The position numbers and the translations under genes are program-made. DNA of 64,000 bases from a virus (Duplodnaviria; Caudoviricetes), in IMG/VR virus record IMGVR_UViG_3300021255_000062, positions 32,001 through 96,000 of that record; one strand, 5' to 3'. The notes beneath the pieces are model-generated. The model did no database searches. It was not told the origin of the DNA and saw only the letters and a program-made list of their open reading frames with translations. This document shows, one piece after another, positions 19,369 through 32,820 of the stretch (within the stretch, counting starts at the first letter, position 1; each line of letters starts with the position of its first letter).

Positions 19369-19547
19369 TGCCAAACAAAGACAAAATAGAAATTTTAAAT
19401 AAAATAATGAAATCTTTAAATAATTTAGATAAACTAGTGGTAATTAATGGATATGAAGATCTTTGGACAGCAAAACAATTAACGGCCACTTTAATTACAA
19501 TTTTAACTATTGAGGAGAAGATGGATGAAAACACGATTAGTAAATAA
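19368..19547 (+). CDS. hypothetical protein (59 aa, not in ORF track)
   Basis: TAATG-coupled to primase; MPNKDKIEILNK...ENTISK. Confidence 0.55.
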   Translation: MPNKDKIEILNKIMKSLNNLDKLVVINGYEDLWTAKQLTATLITILTIEEKMDENTISK

Positions 19548-21279
19548 AGATATTAGAAATAATTATACCAAAGAATTACTTATTGAGCGGGGATTAACCC
19601 AAGAGGAAATTGAATACTTTTTTAATGTACCAAATGATTCGTACCTCCAGAGCCCCTCAATGTTATATAATATTACTTCAGGTTTTATTGACTTTCAAGT
19701 AATGTCGAATCTTTCTGAAGAAGATAGGATTGTGGTGGTTGTTGATAGTGACTGTGATGGGTTTGCTTCTGCCGCGATCTTCATACAATATCTACGGAAA
19801 TTCAATCAAAAAGTACAAATTGAATATGTGCTCCATGAAGGAAAAGGACATGGATTAAGTGATACCATTGATGTAATATTAGAAAAGCAAGATAAAAACC
19901 CTAATATTCGATGGGTTGTTTTACCCGATTCTTCAAGCAATGACTACGAATATCATGAAGAACTTGGTGCAGAAGGAATGAGAGTCTTAGTCCTTGACCA
20001 TCATCTTGTAGAGCCAGATACAAAATTTTCAAAAAACGCGGTTATTATAAACAATCAACTTTCCCCAGACTATATAAATAAAGACCTGTGTGGCGCCGGA
20101 GTAGTATGGCAATTTTGTAGATGGTGTGATCAGATGTTTAATACTAACTATGCAGATGAGTTTATTGATTTAGCCGCATTTGCAGAAATTAGTGATATGA
20201 TGTCGATGCTATCACTTGAAAATCGCTATATTGTACATACTGGATTAAGTAGAATTACTAATTATTTTCTCCGCGCGATGTGCGAAAAACAAGCCTATTC
20301 AATGGGAGGAAAAATCACTCCAATTACAATTGCCTTTTATATAACTCCTTTAGTTAATGCTATGATTAGAGCTGGTACAATGGAAGAAAAGCGACGTTGT
20401 TTTGAAGCTTTTATTGATGGTCATAAAATGGTCGAATCACATAAGCGTGGAGCAAAAGGTACTTTTGAAGAACTTGCAATAGAATCAGCAAGAGAATGTA
20501 CAAATGCAAGAGCGAAACAAAATAGAATTTTAGATAAAGTAGTTGAGCAGCTTGAAATTAAAATTCATAAATATAATTTATTAGAAAACAAAATTTTATT
20601 TATTCGACTAGACGATGAAGATTTTCCGCCTGAATTAAATGGACTTTGCGCAATGAAGCTTGCAGCCAAATATCAACGCCCAACTATTGTAGCAAGATTG
20701 AATGACGACGGAGAAATCAAGGGTTCATTAAGAGGATTAAATGAATCTGAGCTTACTTCATTTAAAGATTTTTTAGACCAAAGTGGATTTTTTACCTTTA
20801 CTGCAGGCCATCCAAATGCTGCTGGATGCGGAATTCTTGATAAAAATTTAGATAGTTTCCATAAATATGCTAATGAAAAACTTGCTAATATTGATTTTGG
20901 TGAAAGCTGGTATGAAGTTAATTTTGAACGTATCGCTGCAGATCCAGACATTCGAGATTTAATTGTAGATATTACTTCTCACGAAGATATTTGGGGACAA
21001 CACAATAATGAACCTCTTATTTACATTAAAGATATTAATATTACTAATAAAGATATTAGAATAATGGGGCGAAATCTTGATACGGTTAAGATAGAAAAAT
21101 TTGGAGTTGCTTATATGAAATTTCACGCTAAAGACTTTATTAAAGAATTAAATCAGTATAAAGGAGAAATAAAACTAGAAATAGTGGGTAGAGCTAATCT
21201 CAACGAGTGGAATGGTACTTATACACCACAAATTTTTATTACAAACTATCAAATTAGTGATAATACCCTAGGGTTTTAG
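19525..21279 (+). CDS. recJ: RecJ-like DHH ssDNA exonuclease
   Basis: DSDCDG, LDHH, LCGAGV, GSLR and AGHPNAAG motifs. Confidence 0.9.
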   Translation: MKTRLVNKDIRNNYTKELLIERGLTQEEIEYFFNVPNDSYLQSPSMLYNITSGFIDFQVMSNLSEEDRIVVVVDSDCDGFASAAIFIQYLRKFNQKVQIEYVLHEGKGHGLSDTIDVILEKQDKNPNIRWVVLPDSSSNDYEYHEELGAEGMRVLVLDHHLVEPDTKFSKNAVIINNQLSPDYINKDLCGAGVVWQFCRWCDQMFNTNYADEFIDLAAFAEISDMMSMLSLENRYIVHTGLSRITNYFLRAMCEKQAYSMGGKITPITIAFYITPLVNAMIRAGTMEEKRRCFEAFIDGHKMVESHKRGAKGTFEELAIESARECTNARAKQNRILDKVVEQLEIKIHKYNLLENKILFIRLDDEDFPPELNGLCAMKLAAKYQRPTIVARLNDDGEIKGSLRGLNESELTSFKDFLDQSGFFTFTAGHPNAAGCGILDKNLDSFHKYANEKLANIDFGESWYEVNFERIAADPDIRDLIVDITSHEDIWGQHNNEPLIYIKDINITNKDIRIMGRNLDTVKIEKFGVAYMKFHAKDFIKELNQYKGEIKLEIVGRANLNEWNGTYTPQIFITNYQISDNTLGF

Positions 21280-21285
21280 GAGAAA

Positions 21286-21489
21286 ATGATTATGGAATGG
21301 GAAGAATATAAAAACCAAGAAAAAGATAAGTTTAAAATATCTGGTTCAAACGACTGGGTGAAAACCGAAATAACATGCCCCAAATGTGGAAGCTCTGTAT
21401 ATAAAAACATAGAGGTAGTTTTAACCAGCTATCCTCCGCACTATCAGTATAAATGTATTAGCTGTGATTGGGTAGGCACGTGGTATTAA
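21286..21489 (+). CDS. small Zn-ribbon protein
   Basis: CPKC...CISC. Confidence 0.7.
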   Translation: MIMEWEEYKNQEKDKFKISGSNDWVKTEITCPKCGSSVYKNIEVVLTSYPPHYQYKCISCDWVGTWY

Positions 21490-21490
21490 T

Positions 21491-21519
21491 TTGTTTTTTT
21501 AATAAAATTTTGATATAAT
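21491..21519 (+). promoter_or_regulatory. sigmaA-type promoter for HNH-dnaE
   Basis: TTGTTT-N17-TATAAT with extended TG. Confidence 0.65.
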
Positions 21520-21555
21520 ATATATAGAATAAATAGAGGAGGCGTGTGAAAACTT

Positions 21556-22188
21556 ATGCAAGGAATTGATATAACTGGACAACGCTTTGGTCATTTAGTT
21601 GCTTTAAAGTTAATACCCAAAGAAGAACGTACTTGGAGTAATAAAGAAAGGGCTTGGTTATGTAAGTGTGATTGTGGTAATGAAGTCATAGTGCGACAAA
21701 GAAATTTATTAAGCAGTAGACCAACCCGTTCTTGTGGATGTTTGCGTAAAAAAGAAGCGTTCAAGTCAACTAATATGATAAAAGGGTTAGAAGATGAATT
21801 TTTAGATAGTTTTAATGATTTTGATAAATTTCTTTTTATTCATAGAACTATTCGCACTGCAATAGGAAATTTTAGTAGTTTAGAAAAGGATAAATATAAA
21901 GAACTAATAAACCACTTTTATAATCAAAAACAATTTAATGATATATATAATTTTTGGTTATCTCAAGAAAAAACTGATACTTTTTATGATTGGGCAAAAC
22001 CTTCTATTGACCATATTATTCCCAAAGCAAAGGGAGGCACTAATGATTTAAACAACTTACAATATCTTACAGTTTTTGAGAATTTAAACAAACGAGATAT
22101 GACAATGAATGAGTGGAATAATTTTAAAAAACTAACTCACACAAGTAGTGATTATTTTTATGAGTCAATTAAGGAGGTGATGCAATGA
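21556..22188 (+). CDS. free-standing HNH homing endonuclease
   Basis: N-terminal DITGQRFGHL...WLCKCDCG...SCGC; C-terminal SIDHIIPKAKGGTNDLNNLQ...ENLNK. Confidence 0.85.
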   Translation: MQGIDITGQRFGHLVALKLIPKEERTWSNKERAWLCKCDCGNEVIVRQRNLLSSRPTRSCGCLRKKEAFKSTNMIKGLEDEFLDSFNDFDKFLFIHRTIRTAIGNFSSLEKDKYKELINHFYNQKQFNDIYNFWLSQEKTDTFYDWAKPSIDHIIPKAKGGTNDLNNLQYLTVFENLNKRDMTMNEWNNFKKLTHTSSDYFYESIKEVMQ

Positions 22189-25100
22189 AAAATCAGTTAA
22201 GATACCCAGGATCGCTCCATAATCATACTGATTTTTCTTAGGTGATCCAATTTTCGTTTGCGTGACAGTATTAACACTGTCGAGTCATTAATAGATTATG
22301 CAATAGAACTTGGTCATGAAGTAGTAGCGATTACTGAACATGATACAATAGCTAGTGCTATCAGAGCGGAAAAATATTATAGCAAAATTAAAAAGAATAA
22401 TCCGGACTTTAAACTTATTAGAGGTAATGAGATTTATCTTGTAAGAAATGGATTAAATAATGATAACTTTAAAAAAGAAACAGATAGATATTTTCATTTT
22501 ATTCTGTTAGCAAAGGATCTCGAAGGTCATAGACAGATTCGCGAGATTTCTTCGCGTGCTTGGATGAGAAGTTACATGGCGCGCCGTATGAGAAGGGTCC
22601 CAACTTATTATCAAGATTTAATTGATGTAATTGGAAAGAATCCTGGCCATGTGGTTGGGTGTACGGCATGTTTAGGTGGGTGTCTTCCAACTCAACTTAT
22701 CCGTAATAGAGATACTGGCGCACCGAGTATGGACTTGATTAAACGATGGATTGTTCAGATGCAAGGTATTTTTGGAATAGATGACTTTTATTTCGAAATG
22801 CAACCATCATTTAATAAAGACCAGATTTATGTAAACAAAAAATTAGTTGAACTTAGTGAAGAAATGGGTATCAAATATATTATAACTAACGATGCTCATT
22901 ATTTAAAAAAAGAAGATAGACCAATTCATAAGGCTTTTCTTAATGCTCAGCAAGGAGATAGAGAAGTTGACGATTTCTATGCAACGACCTATTTAATGAG
23001 TGATGAAGAAATTTATCACTATATGGAAGAATCATTAGGAGAAACAGTTTTACAAAAAGCATATCAAACAATAGAAGAAATTAAAGATAAGTGTGAAGAC
23101 TATTCATTAATGAAACCGCTAAAGATTCCAAGATTGAATTGGAAGACTTTTGATGTCAAATCAGATGCGGTAAAATTTTTAAGTGATAAAATCCCTTATT
23201 TAAAAAGATTTCTCGAATCAGAATATGCAGAGGACAGACATTTAGCATATGCAATTATTGATAGATTAACCAATAGTAAAGCAGAAGATGAATTATGGAA
23301 CAAAGAAACTTATGAAGAAATTAATGCATGTCTTAAAGATACGTGGGTATCATCAGAAGTAAACGGAAGTAGATGGAGTGCTTATTTCTTAAATCTTCAA
23401 AATATAATTGATGCTTGTTGGGACGCAGGAACTCTTGTTGGCTGCGGCCGAGGCTCTGGAGTTGGTTTTATTTTGTTATATCTATTAGGTATAACTCAGA
23501 TAAATCCACTAAGAGAAAAAAGTCAAACCAAAAGATGGAGATTTCTTAATCCAGAGCGTGTGTCAGTCCTTGATGTAGATATTGATATCGAGGGCGGACG
23601 GCGTGCAGACGTATTAAAAAAGTTTCGTAAAATTTATGGAGAAGATAGGGTCGCTAATGTATTAACATTAAAAACAGAAAAATCTAAGTCTGCAATTCAA
23701 ACAGCTTGTCGTGGATTGGGAGTAGACAGTGATATATCTGCATATCTTTCTTCATTCATTCAAGCTGATAGAGGACAGCTTCGAACTCTTAAACAAACTT
23801 TTTACGGAGATCCCGATAATGGGATTAGTGCCTCCCATCAGTTCAAATTAGAAATGGAAGAGAACTATCCAGAAGTCTGGGAAGTGGCGCAAAGAATTGA
23901 AGGATTAATCAATGGCTGTGGGGTTCACGCGGGTGGAGTTATCTTTGTAGATGAGCCTTTCACAAAGTCAACCGCATTAATGCGAGCGCCAAAAGGAGAA
24001 ATTATAACTCAATTTGATCTCCATGATGCGGAAGATACAGGACTTATTAAATATGATATCCTATCCGTTGAAGCATTGGATAAAATTCACAATTGTATTG
24101 ATTTGATTTGTAAATATGGCTATGAAAAAAGAGAAGAAACATTAAAAGATACCTATGAAAAAATTATTGGTATATATAATCTTGAACGTGAAGCGCCAGA
24201 GATGTGGCAGATGTGTTGGAATCATGAGGTAATGAGTTTGTTCCAAATGGAAAAACAATCTGGAGTAAACGGAATTGCAGCAATGAAACCAACTTCTGTA
24301 GATGACTTGGCAATTCTCAATTCAGCAATTCGTCTTATGGCGACAGAAAAAGGTGGAGAAATGCCAGTTAATAAATTAGCTAGATTTAAAGCGCATCCAT
24401 CTGATTGGGATTATGAATTACAAAAATATGGACTTGGCGCTGAAGCAAAAGAAATTCTTGAACCAGTTCTTAATGTATCTTACGGTTTATGTATTGCTCA
24501 GGAACAATTTATGCAACTTGTACAGCTACCTGAATTAGGTGGATTCAACCTAACCTGGGCAGACAAGTTAAGAAAGTCAATTGCAAAAAAGAATCCGGCA
24601 CAGTATGAAGAGTTAACCAAAGAATATTTCAAGGTTATAAAAGAAAAAGGTTTAGATGAGCGACTTTGTACTTATGTATGGAATGTACTTATTGCAATGA
24701 GTAAAGGTTATGGATTTAACTTATCTCATACGTTGGCTTATTCATTAATCGGATTGCAAGAGTTAAATCTTGCATATCGTTATCCAACAATTTTATGGGA
24801 TTGCGCTTGTCTTATCTCTGATAGCGGCGGTGTCGATAAAGAAGAAGAGGAAGAAGATGGAAATAACGAAGAAACAACTAGAGGAAATGTTTGGGATTCG
24901 TTTGATGACATATCAATGGGTGTTTTTACAGATGATGAAGATGGAGAAGTGGGAGACATTGATTTATCTCCCACCAAGAAGAAATCGTCAAACAGAACTG
25001 CTAACTATGGCAAAATTGCTACAGCAATTGGAAAAATAAGTCAAGAAGGTGTAGAAATTATAGCCACAAATATAAATAAGTCTGAATACACCTTTGCACC

Positions 25101-26205
25101 AGATGTAGATAATAATAGAATTATTTATGGTTTAAGTGGTATAACTAGAGTTGGTGATGATTTAATTCGTTTAATTATGAATAATAGACCGTATGAGTCA
25201 ATAGAAGATTTTATTGGTAAAGTTAAAGTTAATAAACCACAAATGATTAATTTGATTAAGTCAGGCGCATTTGATGAGTTATATGGCGGCGATCGTGTAG
25301 TTGCAATGAATAAGTATATTGATTTAATTGCCGACAAAAAGAAAAGAATGACATTACAAAATATGCAAATGTTAATTAATTTTGGTTTCATTCCAGAGGA
25401 ATATGATTTTCAATGTAGGGTTTACAACTTTAACAAATATTTGAAAAAACATAAAATTGATAATTCATATGGTATTGATAATGTTGCTCTAACTTTTTAT
25501 TCAAACAATTTTGATATGGATTTATTAACTCCTTCTGATGAATATGTATTTACTATAAAGCAAACTGATTGGGATAAAATTTACAAAAAGCAAATGGATA
25601 TTATTCGTCCATTTATTAAAGAGAACAATCAAGAGTTGTTAGATAAAGTAAATAATAAACTTAGACAAGATTTATGGGATAAATATTGCTCTGGAACTTT
25701 AAGTCAATGGGAAATGGATTCTATTTCTTGCTATATTCATGACCATGAATTAAAGAATCTTAAAAATGGATTTTATGGATTTGCAGAATATAGTAAACTA
25801 CCAGAGAATCCGATAGTAAGTTATGAATTTCGTTCTAAAGAAACTGGTCAAAAGATTCCATTATTTAAAATTTGTCGTATTGCTGGAACAGTATTAGACA
25901 AAGATAAAAATAAGAAAATGATTACTTTGTTAACCAATGATAGTGTTGTAACTGTAAAAATATTTGGTGATGCTTTTACTCATTATGATAGACAAATATC
26001 AGAAAAGCAACCAAATGGAACTAAAAAGGTAGTAGAAAAGTCTTGGTTATCAAGAGGAAATAAAATTATAGTAACGGGGATTAGAAGAGAAAATAATTTT
26101 ATAGCGAAAAAATATAAAAATACTCCATATCATTTAGTTGAATTAATAACTTCAATTAGTGATGATGGTTATATTACAACTCAAAAGGAGCGAGTTGAAG
26201 TATGA
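22185..26205 (+). CDS. dnaE: DNA polymerase III alpha (DnaE), interrupted by a 10-nt gap at 22239-22248
   Basis: ATG 22185 with AAGGAGG SD encodes MKNQLRYPGSLHNHTDFS, then TAG; the +1 frame continues NFRLRDSIN...; GRGSG, DVDID, HAGG, KYDIL and GYGFNLSH motifs. Confidence 0.9.
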
Positions 26206-31940: not shown

Positions 31941-32820
31941 TGAATTAAATAACAAAGAAAAATCCATGGAGCAATTAGAAGAACTTTATAAAAACAATCC
32001 ACAATTTGCAGAAATGCTTGGCGGTTTAGAGGTTTTTAGTACCTTATTTGAAATGAATGAGGAAGATTTTATTAAAATTGCTCCATCAATTTATCAAATT
32101 TATAACGAAACTCTTAATGAACCCGCCACAGAAGCAGAATTTTCTACTTTGTTTGCATCTGGACAGTGGCAAATAGATGATTTAGAAAAGGAAGTTAATA
32201 TTGCCTACCTCGCCATTGATGATATAGAAGAATTAGAAAGTGTAAAAAAAGATTTCTTTAAAAGATTAGTTTCAACACTTGCTAATAAAATTAGAGAAGT
32301 ATATCATCGTAAAGCAATAGATATTCCATGTGAACTTAGCAACAATGTAAAACTACCTACCTATGCTAGACCAGGGGACGCGGGGATGGATATTGTTTCG
32401 CCGGAAGAATACACAATTAACCCAGGAGAAACAGTGATAATTCCGACTGGAATTAAAGTTGCAATCCCAGAAGGTTATGCAATTCTTATACAGCCGCGCA
32501 GTGGTCAATCAGTCAAAACAAAACTTCGAATTGCAAATAGTCCAGGGCTTATTGATTCAGGATATAGAGATGAAATTGGAGTCATTGTTGAAAATATTGA
32601 CCCACCTTTTAAAGACATAGATTATGAATTTGACAATAATGGAGAAATTCATATTAAATCTATTCTCCACGGACAACCTTATACTATCGCCAAAGGACAA
32701 AAATTCGCTCAAATGAGATTAGTAAGAGTGCCGACAATTAATTTTGTAAAAGTAGATTCGGTACAAAATATTGGAGAAAACCGTGGCGGAGGCTTCGGAC
32801 ATACTGATTTAAGTGAGTAA
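31933..32820 (+). CDS. dut: trimeric dUTPase with N-terminal extension
   Basis: AGMD, PRSG, GLIDSGYRDEI, AQ and RGGGFGHT motifs; start codon uncertain. Confidence 0.9.
   Translation: MNNELNNKEKSMEQLEELYKNNPQFAEMLGGLEVFSTLFEMNEEDFIKIAPSIYQIYNETLNEPATEAEFSTLFASGQWQIDDLEKEVNIAYLAIDDIEELESVKKDFFKRLVSTLANKIREVYHRKAIDIPCELSNNVKLPTYARPGDAGMDIVSPEEYTINPGETVIIPTGIKVAIPEGYAILIQPRSGQSVKTKLRIANSPGLIDSGYRDEIGVIVENIDPPFKDIDYEFDNNGEIHIKSILHGQPYTIAKGQKFAQMRLVRVPTINFVKVDSVQNIGENRGGGFGHTDLSE

Follow-up and report, generated by a model that had tools for sequence, protein, structure and literature searches.

A candidate short translational bypass linked to a homing-endonuclease cassette in the DNA polymerase gene dnaE of an uncultured rumen phage

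Introduction

Translational bypassing has so far been known from one well-studied bacterial-type case, gene 60 of phage T4, plus the byps of yeast mitochondria (PMC5009743). The gene 60 bypass insert blocks nicking by the MobA endonuclease, which is sometimes replaced by a GIY-YIG enzyme (bioRxiv 10.1101/2022.08.31.505936, Manning and Atkins), and a 2016 review describes a stem-loop 5′ of the gene 60 gap, which has been proposed to move the ribosome forward by re-forming behind it (PMC5009743). That review also mentions synthetic stop-hops in E. coli, which were engineered and of low efficiency (Weiss et al. 1987, cited in PMC5009743). According to the review, no natural in-frame stop-hop was known in 2016, and shorter natural counterparts of bypassing, whose existence had "long been presumed", were then unknown (PMC5009743). 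Here, we examine the 5′ end of dnaE, the gene for DNA polymerase III (Pol III) alpha, in an uncultured rumen phage whose 125.9-kb IMG/VR record (IMGVR_UViG_3300021255_000062) has direct terminal repeats and is rated complete; the stretch analysed, called the window, comprises 64,000 nucleotides (nt; positions 32,001 to 96,000 of the record) and provides the coordinates used below. Its dnaE gene is interrupted by a stop-led gap of 10 nt, and our literature search found no publication describing short hop gaps in phage dnaE.

We consider it likely, from comparison of the locus with its relatives, that a mobile homing-endonuclease cassette carries a short translational bypass here and that this bypass would yield full-length DnaE, as a miniature analogue and not a homologue of T4 gene 60/MobA. 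As in that pair, the insert lies within a conserved catalytic motif of an essential replication gene, is linked to a free-standing HNH endonuclease that is swapped for a GIY-YIG enzyme in relatives, and has a patchy, mobile distribution. Also as in gene 60, the take-off and landing codons (TCT/TCC) are readable by one tRNA, a stop stands directly 3′ of the take-off codon, and a helix of 11 base pairs (bp) lies 5′ of take-off, where it may act as the gene 60 stem-loop does. Gap-bearing loci without a nuclease (L059, L073, L097 and L115; L numbers denote related loci) resemble those gene 60 relatives that lost MobA. In contrast to gene 60, with its 50-nt gap, the gap is 10 nt here and 5-11 nt in relatives, the window gap has no take-off stem-loop, and a first open reading frame (ORF1) of only 18 codons rules out a long nascent-peptide signal. 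Further differences are that the host gene is dnaE and not a topoisomerase gene, that the element lacks sequence homology to the gene 60 cassette, that the 5′ arm of the dnaE hairpin covers the start codon, and that the dnaE hop is a prediction from sequence.

The synthetic E. coli stop-hops offer a second comparison, since in them, too, a stop is flanked by matching codons and the hops are short (+5/+6). Their exact geometry is found in L069 and L137 (TCT TAG TCA/TCT) and in L115 (AAT TA AAC), and the 6-nt relatives would represent natural versions of the synthetic stop-hop; unlike the engineered sites, those in dnaE are natural, conserved, structured and located in an essential gene. The mitochondrial byps of Magnusiomyces capitatus differ in their length of 27-55 nt, in needing an unused A-site codon and in having no link to an endonuclease gene (PMC5009743). 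A candidate bypass in Streptomyces phage terminase genes (PMC10732093; PMC5009743) is alike in being a short gap in a phage gene for which an SD-like (Shine-Dalgarno-like) element has been proposed to help, and unlike in that its A-site codon is the rare UUA and not a stop, that a regulatory role has been proposed for it, and that it has no endonuclease cassette.

Results

The dnaE site consists of the following elements.

22171-22181, plus strand: SD sequence AAGGAGGTGAT, upstream of the dnaE ATG at 22185
22185..22238, plus strand: dnaE ORF1, 18 codons, MKNQLRYPGSLHNHTDFS, holding the HxH metal ligands of PHP motif I
22236..22238, plus strand: take-off codon TCT (Ser)
22239..22248, plus strand: 10-nt gap, read as untranslated: TAG, GTGA and the landing codon TCC (22246-48)
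22249..26205, plus strand: dnaE ORF2, resuming at AAT, 1318 codons plus stop
22258..22260, plus strand: TTG, the Leu codon in NFRLRD, where translation might restart 11 nt past the SD-like gap

The frame opened by the ATG ends with TCT and TAG (22239-41), and the +1 frame, which is the long dnaE frame, carries TGA at 22243-45, followed by TCC and AAT TTT CGT, such that positions 22239-22248 can be crossed in no single frame. From TCC 22246 to 26205, the dnaE frame is open for 1319 codons, which include the motifs TEHD, GNE, FHF, ACLGG and NDAH. When 22239-22248 are deleted, the translation becomes LHNHTDFS-NFRLRDSI, identical in every letter to uninterrupted relatives, among them L002; in L002, whose DnaE N-terminus was aligned to residues 4-238 of Thermus aquaticus Pol III alpha (2hpi), the LHNHTDFS stretch aligns with the N-terminal LHQHTQFS and represents PHP motif I. 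A preliminary description of the window had listed the SD-led ATG, the TCT-TAG pair, the +1-frame TGA and the TCC, had predicted the same joined sequence on skipping the 10 nt, and had noted intact later PHP motifs and some 1300 open codons, all of which proved correct when re-read. The product matches Pol III alpha (PF07733, 185.8 bits) with its PHP metal-ligand motifs visible, and dnaE is the sole family A, B or C DNA polymerase gene that we found in the complete 125.9-kb genome. When the genome was crudely scanned for a codon followed by a stop, a short gap and the same amino acid, the dnaE site alone stood out.

An assembly error, which the preliminary description had named as something to exclude, is contradicted by a 295-nt Logan contig (run X6, belonging to an independent bovine-gut study of 2025), which covers 22054-22348 with five substitutions and no indel and contains the 10 nt. 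Because this independent contig carries it, the gap is not an error of the present assembly. Runs X1 (the probable source sample), X4 and X5 had no contig over the site and are uninformative either way.

Scans of IMG/VR and of metagenome contigs yielded 91 distinct dnaE 5′ ends, the window and L137 included. Most (67/91) are uninterrupted and read LHNHTDFSNFRLRD, the exact predicted joined product, with (Y/F)PGSLHNHTDFSNFRLRD as their consensus. The remaining 24, the window among them, have a stop-led gap in PHP motif I, placed behind its His, Asn or Ser codon. Gaps of 5, 6, 7, 8, 9, 10 and 11 nt were found (exemplified by L115, L069, L051, L004, L023, the window and L094, respectively), falling into all three frame classes; in every one of the 24 loci TGA, TAG or TAA stands directly 3′ of the take-off codon, and when the codon that follows the landing codon is placed next to the take-off codon, the consensus YPGSLHNHTDFSNFRLRDS reappears. 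The gap types are, in the order take-off codon, stop, spacer and landing codon, as follows.

His take-off: CAT TGA CC CAA
Asn take-off: AAC TGA GG AAC (seven distinct loci)
Asn take-off: AAC TGA GGA AAC
Asn take-off: AAC TGA GGG AAC
Asn take-off: AAT TGA G AAC
Asn take-off: AAT TAG GG AGC
Asn take-off: AAT TA-AAC (L115)
Ser take-off: TCT TAG GTGA TCC (window)
Ser take-off: TCT TGA GG TCT
Ser take-off: TCT TGA AG TCT
Ser take-off: TCT TAG TCA
Ser take-off: TCT TAG TCT
Ser take-off: TCT TGA ATG TCT (L084)
Ser take-off: TCT TAG CGAAA TCT
Ser take-off: TCT TGA GG TTT

Chance is a remote explanation for the pattern, since another 23 distinct relatives are interrupted in a similar manner at this motif. 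In 20 of the 24 loci the landing codon is cognate with the take-off codon, and in the other four two of the three bases match. Ser-site loci land on UCN in eight of nine cases and on AGY in none; the same Ser is written AGY in 34/66 uninterrupted loci and in 11/13 Asn-site loci. Landing codons vary among synonyms only (TCT, TCC, TCA; AAT, AAC), a drift that suggests selection on a codon that would never be decoded. Over the last 12 codons of ORF1, the window and L004 differ by seven synonymous and no non-synonymous changes, including TCG versus AGT for Ser, and by this comparison ORF1 is under purifying selection. Gap-bearing lineages are diverse, and their gap sequences stay conserved while flanking synonymous sites vary. 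We also considered the SD-like GAGG as a universal part of the gap and rejected it; by eye, approximately 14 of the 24 gaps have it, and it is missing from those of L022, L084, L094, L069, L100/L101 and L115.

The IMG/VR search gave no further copy of the exact 10-nt gap type of the window and one extra 6-nt variant (L137). Cultured phages provided no DNA relative above 80% identity, a protein search among them found no carrier of the dnaE gap family, and dnaE was uninterrupted in both phages looked at individually, Enterocloster phage CB457P2 and Mycobacterium phage MontyDev. A scan of genome contigs for the host returned only bins of metagenome-assembled genomes and did not identify it. As a separate observation, three short metagenome contigs (L067:110-709, L102:438-1037, L113:1649-2248) each have one in-frame stop in the conserved N-terminal region of dnaE, replacing Tyr by TAA, Arg by TAG and Lys by TAG, respectively; these could be errors, nonsense alleles or cases of stop-codon recoding.

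Two features were not in the preliminary description: a hairpin with covariation whose end falls at the take-off codon, and an association with a mobile endonuclease cassette. In the window the hairpin has two arms.

22187..22197, plus strand: 5′ arm GAAAAAUCAGU, overlapping the start codon
22227..22237, plus strand: 3′ arm ACUGAUUUUUC, ending inside the take-off codon

The two arms pair over 11 bp (22187-97 with 22227-37), and the helix is present in all gap loci, its 3′ arm shifting with the take-off position.

Ser-site pairing: ACNGAUUUUUC
Asn-site pairing: GUCUUCAU(.AACUG)
His-site pairing: UAGUAGUUUNCAUU

Mean duplex energy is -11.9 kcal/mol in the gap loci, whereas in 64 uninterrupted loci the corresponding three positions give -5.8 to -7.0 (Mann-Whitney p ~1e-9, among loci that are related). 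In the Ser helix, 95% of cells are paired and three pairs show compensatory changes, compared with 41-60% paired when the arms are slid; the corresponding figures for the Asn helix are 92%, two pairs and 28-58%. An example from the Ser helix is AAA/UUU to AUA/UAU, where Phe became Tyr. The extension of the Asn helix follows the stop codon, being CAGU/ACUG with UGA and UAAU/AUUA with UAG, and some compensatory changes take in the first two bases of the stop codon. A different hairpin is predicted in the 8-nt Ser relatives L004, L022, L064 and L059, where 11-12 bp involve the take-off codon, stop and landing codon. Just past the landing site of the window, in the DSINTV codons, lies a further hairpin (GACAGU-AUUAAC-ACUGUC, 22263-22285), which is not gap-specific because it is also predicted in the uninterrupted L002 and, with other pairing, in L003.

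Upstream of dnaE, the window contains the following features.

21511..21542, plus strand: leader with the promoter-like TGATATAAT (21511-19) and the SD GAGGAGG (21536-42), identified by eye and by blastn to the L002 leader
21556..22188, plus strand: free-standing HNH endonuclease gene, 210 amino acids (PF01844)
21539..22248, plus strand: cassette of approximately 710 nt, absent from L002, comprising the HNH gene, the 10-nt gap and a new 5′ end of dnaE (SD, start and 18 codons)

The leader is 86% identical over 42 nt (blastn) to that upstream of dnaE in L002; in uninterrupted relatives such as L002 it stands directly before dnaE, and in the window before the HNH gene. A scan for consensus promoters and terminators was uninformative and did not list the 21511-19 element. 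The HNH match (PF01844, E 2.8e-5) is above the cut-off and establishes membership of the HNH superfamily only; the TGA stop of the gene overlaps the dnaE ATG (ATGA). Homologues with 78-88% identity occupy the same place in L004, L069 and L084, all of which bear gaps. The cassette has no counterpart in L002, which is the nearest dnaE relative, and is 84% identical to L084, whereas the body of the window dnaE is closest to the gap-free L002 (86-91%) and 75-84% identical to L084. By these affinities, the locus is of mosaic ancestry.

An HNH or GIY-YIG endonuclease gene lies directly upstream of dnaE in 13 of the 18 gap loci with upstream context versus 2 of approximately 55 uninterrupted loci. 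The enzymes are of three kinds.

210-amino-acid HNH enzyme: window, L004, L069, L084
406-456-amino-acid HNH-like homing endonuclease of the phrog_374/559 type: L014, L022, L064, L094
238-241-amino-acid GIY-YIG enzyme: L017, L023, L051, L071, L101

No nuclease gene was found nearby in the four gap loci L059, L073, L097 and L115. On a quick DnaE tree the gaps are scattered, requiring at least 14 state changes, five of them forced by well-supported branches. A nearly identical SD block, AAGGAGGTGATGCA, occurs in all cassette types (22171-22200 in the window; also L003, L014, L017, L022 and L023), and in cassette loci the endonuclease stop overlaps the dnaE start (ATGA or TAGTG). Together, the shared block and the overlap suggest translational coupling and a common origin of the replacement 5′ end of dnaE.

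Discussion

We infer that ribosomes hop over the gap, as follows. Initiation would take place at ATG 22185 and would probably be coupled, via the ATGA overlap, to termination of the HNH gene; after 18 codons the ribosomes would be held up, with peptidyl-tRNA-Ser paired to UCU while UAG fills the A site. Next, the tRNA would release, the mRNA would slide by 10 nt, the same tRNA would re-pair at UCC 22246-48, and decoding would restart at AAU, giving a product that contains the junction peptide YPGSLHNHTDFSNFR. Bases 5′ of the take-off codon that leave the ribosome could re-pair with the region of the start codon to form the 11-bp hairpin, which, by analogy with gene 60, may favour forward movement. 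The gap itself probably spoils the target site of the nuclease and so would protect the cassette, as the bypass insert does against MobA. A hop is favoured because no single frameshift or readthrough suits all gap lengths, take-off sites and stops, while one mechanism fits all of them, namely release of peptidyl-tRNA from the take-off codon and its re-pairing with a cognate codon a few bases further along. The preliminary description had preferred a hop to decay, a plain frameshift or readthrough, and had pointed to the 5′ ends of related dnaE genes as a comparison; aligned, these show gaps of 5-11 nt in all three frame classes that lead to the same joined protein, comparative support that favours its choice.

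Several points weigh against a hop. All related sequences are metagenomic, and because the loci are related, the statistics make them look more independent than they are. With 18 codons in ORF1, a nascent-peptide signal like that of gene 60, which would lie 25-30 residues from the P site, is impossible, and the C-terminal 12 residues of ORF1 are fixed by DnaE function; no stem-loop of take-off codon and stop is predicted in the gap of the window. The uninterrupted L058 (1623-2500) and L109 (1606-2500) have a GIY-YIG gene directly upstream, that of L058 being 81% identical to the enzyme of the gap-bearing L017, and therefore a gap is not always needed beside the nuclease. Matched codons could partly be a by-product of the origin of the inserts as small duplications. 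Finally, the gap of the window resembles a ribosome-binding site with a TTG 11 nt downstream, which is compatible with a restart, and that of L084 (TCT TGA ATG TCT, 1264-1333) has a stop-start arrangement, so that L084 could use a restart instead of, or as well as, a hop.

Restart at TTG 22258 is the main and a serious rival for the window, even if we judge it unlikely. Translation would stop at TAG 22239, releasing an 18-residue peptide, and re-initiate at the TTG guided by AGGTGATC (22240-22247), which is an 8-nt copy of the SD core of dnaE itself; the outcome would be either DnaE lacking the HxH ligands or an enzyme in two pieces, with the peptide rebound. The TGA followed directly by ATG in L084 fits such a scheme, and split proteins that reassemble are known beside homing endonucleases, e.g. 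T4 gp39/gp60 and Aeh1 NrdA (bioRxiv 10.1101/2022.08.31.505936). Yet a start codon with an SD-like motif is seen in the window only, in 9 of the 23 gap loci checked the 25 codons past the landing codon include no ATG, GTG or TTG, and TTG 22258 is an ancestral Leu codon, because uninterrupted relatives have the same one. A restart needs neither cognate landing codons nor a hairpin that tracks the take-off site, both of which are conserved, and the purifying selection on the PHP residues of ORF1 sits poorly with a peptide of 18 residues, which is unlikely to be a stable subunit. Other recoding, in the form of two successive -1 slips on T runs (GAUUUUU 22230, AAUUUU 22249) or of readthrough or a -1 frameshift in relatives, would yield DnaE with a few extra residues inside motif I. 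The -1 frame is indeed open across the gap of the window and, after a U run, in the 8-nt relatives, which a -1 shift could serve, and the 6- and 9-nt relatives are in frame and could use readthrough; for the 10-nt gap there is no simple alternative. Such recoding seems very improbable, requiring a separate mechanism for each gap length, inserting 2-5 residues between invariant metal ligands and leaving the cognate landing codons unexplained. We know of no precedent for two coupled -1 shifts within 20 nt.

A broken gene, in which the cassette has inactivated or truncated dnaE and the damage is tolerated via the host polymerase, in a defective particle or as a recent event, is slightly less probable still. 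Homing elements can be parasitic, and L067, L102 and L113 show plain in-frame dnaE stops, but 1319 codons remain open with 77-91% identity to relatives, no relaxed selection (a ratio of non-synonymous to synonymous substitutions, dN/dS, near 1) was seen downstream of gaps, and dnaE is the only polymerase gene in the complete genome. The diversity of gap-bearing lineages, with gaps conserved among varying synonymous sites, and the purifying selection on ORF1 argue in the same direction. That the 10 nt are absent from the phage DNA is the least probable of these explanations and almost certainly wrong: the sequence is a metagenome assembly, and contigs of the probable source run did not reach across the site, but the contig from the independent study spans it with 0 gaps, and 23 other distinct loci from many samples have analogous gaps. 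A suppressor tRNA or an altered genetic code was rejected, as the frames differ across the gap and no suppressor is present among the 16 tRNA genes, which lie on the minus strand at 115468-119149 of the genome, past the window end, and include Ser(UGA), Ser(GCU), Asn(GUU) and three Leu. Splicing was likewise rejected, 10 nt being far too short for a self-splicing intron.

Extending translational bypass to the whole family, we lean on balance towards natural, recurrent short hopping, in which HNH, large HNH-like and GIY-YIG cassettes carry a minimal, self-contained bypass module made of the start-to-take-off hairpin, a stop, a spacer of 2-8 bases and a cognate landing codon. Such a module would let a cassette sit in the most conserved catalytic codons of an essential polymerase with the protein unharmed, and would require neither a long nascent-peptide signal nor a 50-nt gap. 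The 23 related natural versions point to ribosomes hopping over such gaps, which would be a rare mode of gene reading. If true, an 18-codon ORF and a hairpin suffice to reprogram a ribosome, homing endonucleases gain a third way, beside introns and inteins, to live inside essential genes, and gene callers wrongly annotate such genes as broken or N-terminally truncated. The 23 natural variants, with seven gap lengths, three take-off codons and three stop codons, amount to a set of mutants supplied by nature, from which the minimum that a hop requires could be worked out.

Before the cassette, at 19510-21489, the window holds a RecJ-like DHH/DHHA1 exonuclease gene (589 amino acids) and a 67-amino-acid zinc-ribbon ORF, both of which are kept upstream of dnaE in most relatives. 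The intergenic stretch from the RecJ-like gene to dnaE forms a hot spot of free-standing homing endonuclease genes, even beside gap-free dnaE, with HNH-like enzymes bearing GxRFGxL repeats and GIY-YIG enzymes found there in L003, L006, L009, L010, L021, L024, L027, L087, L088 and L091.

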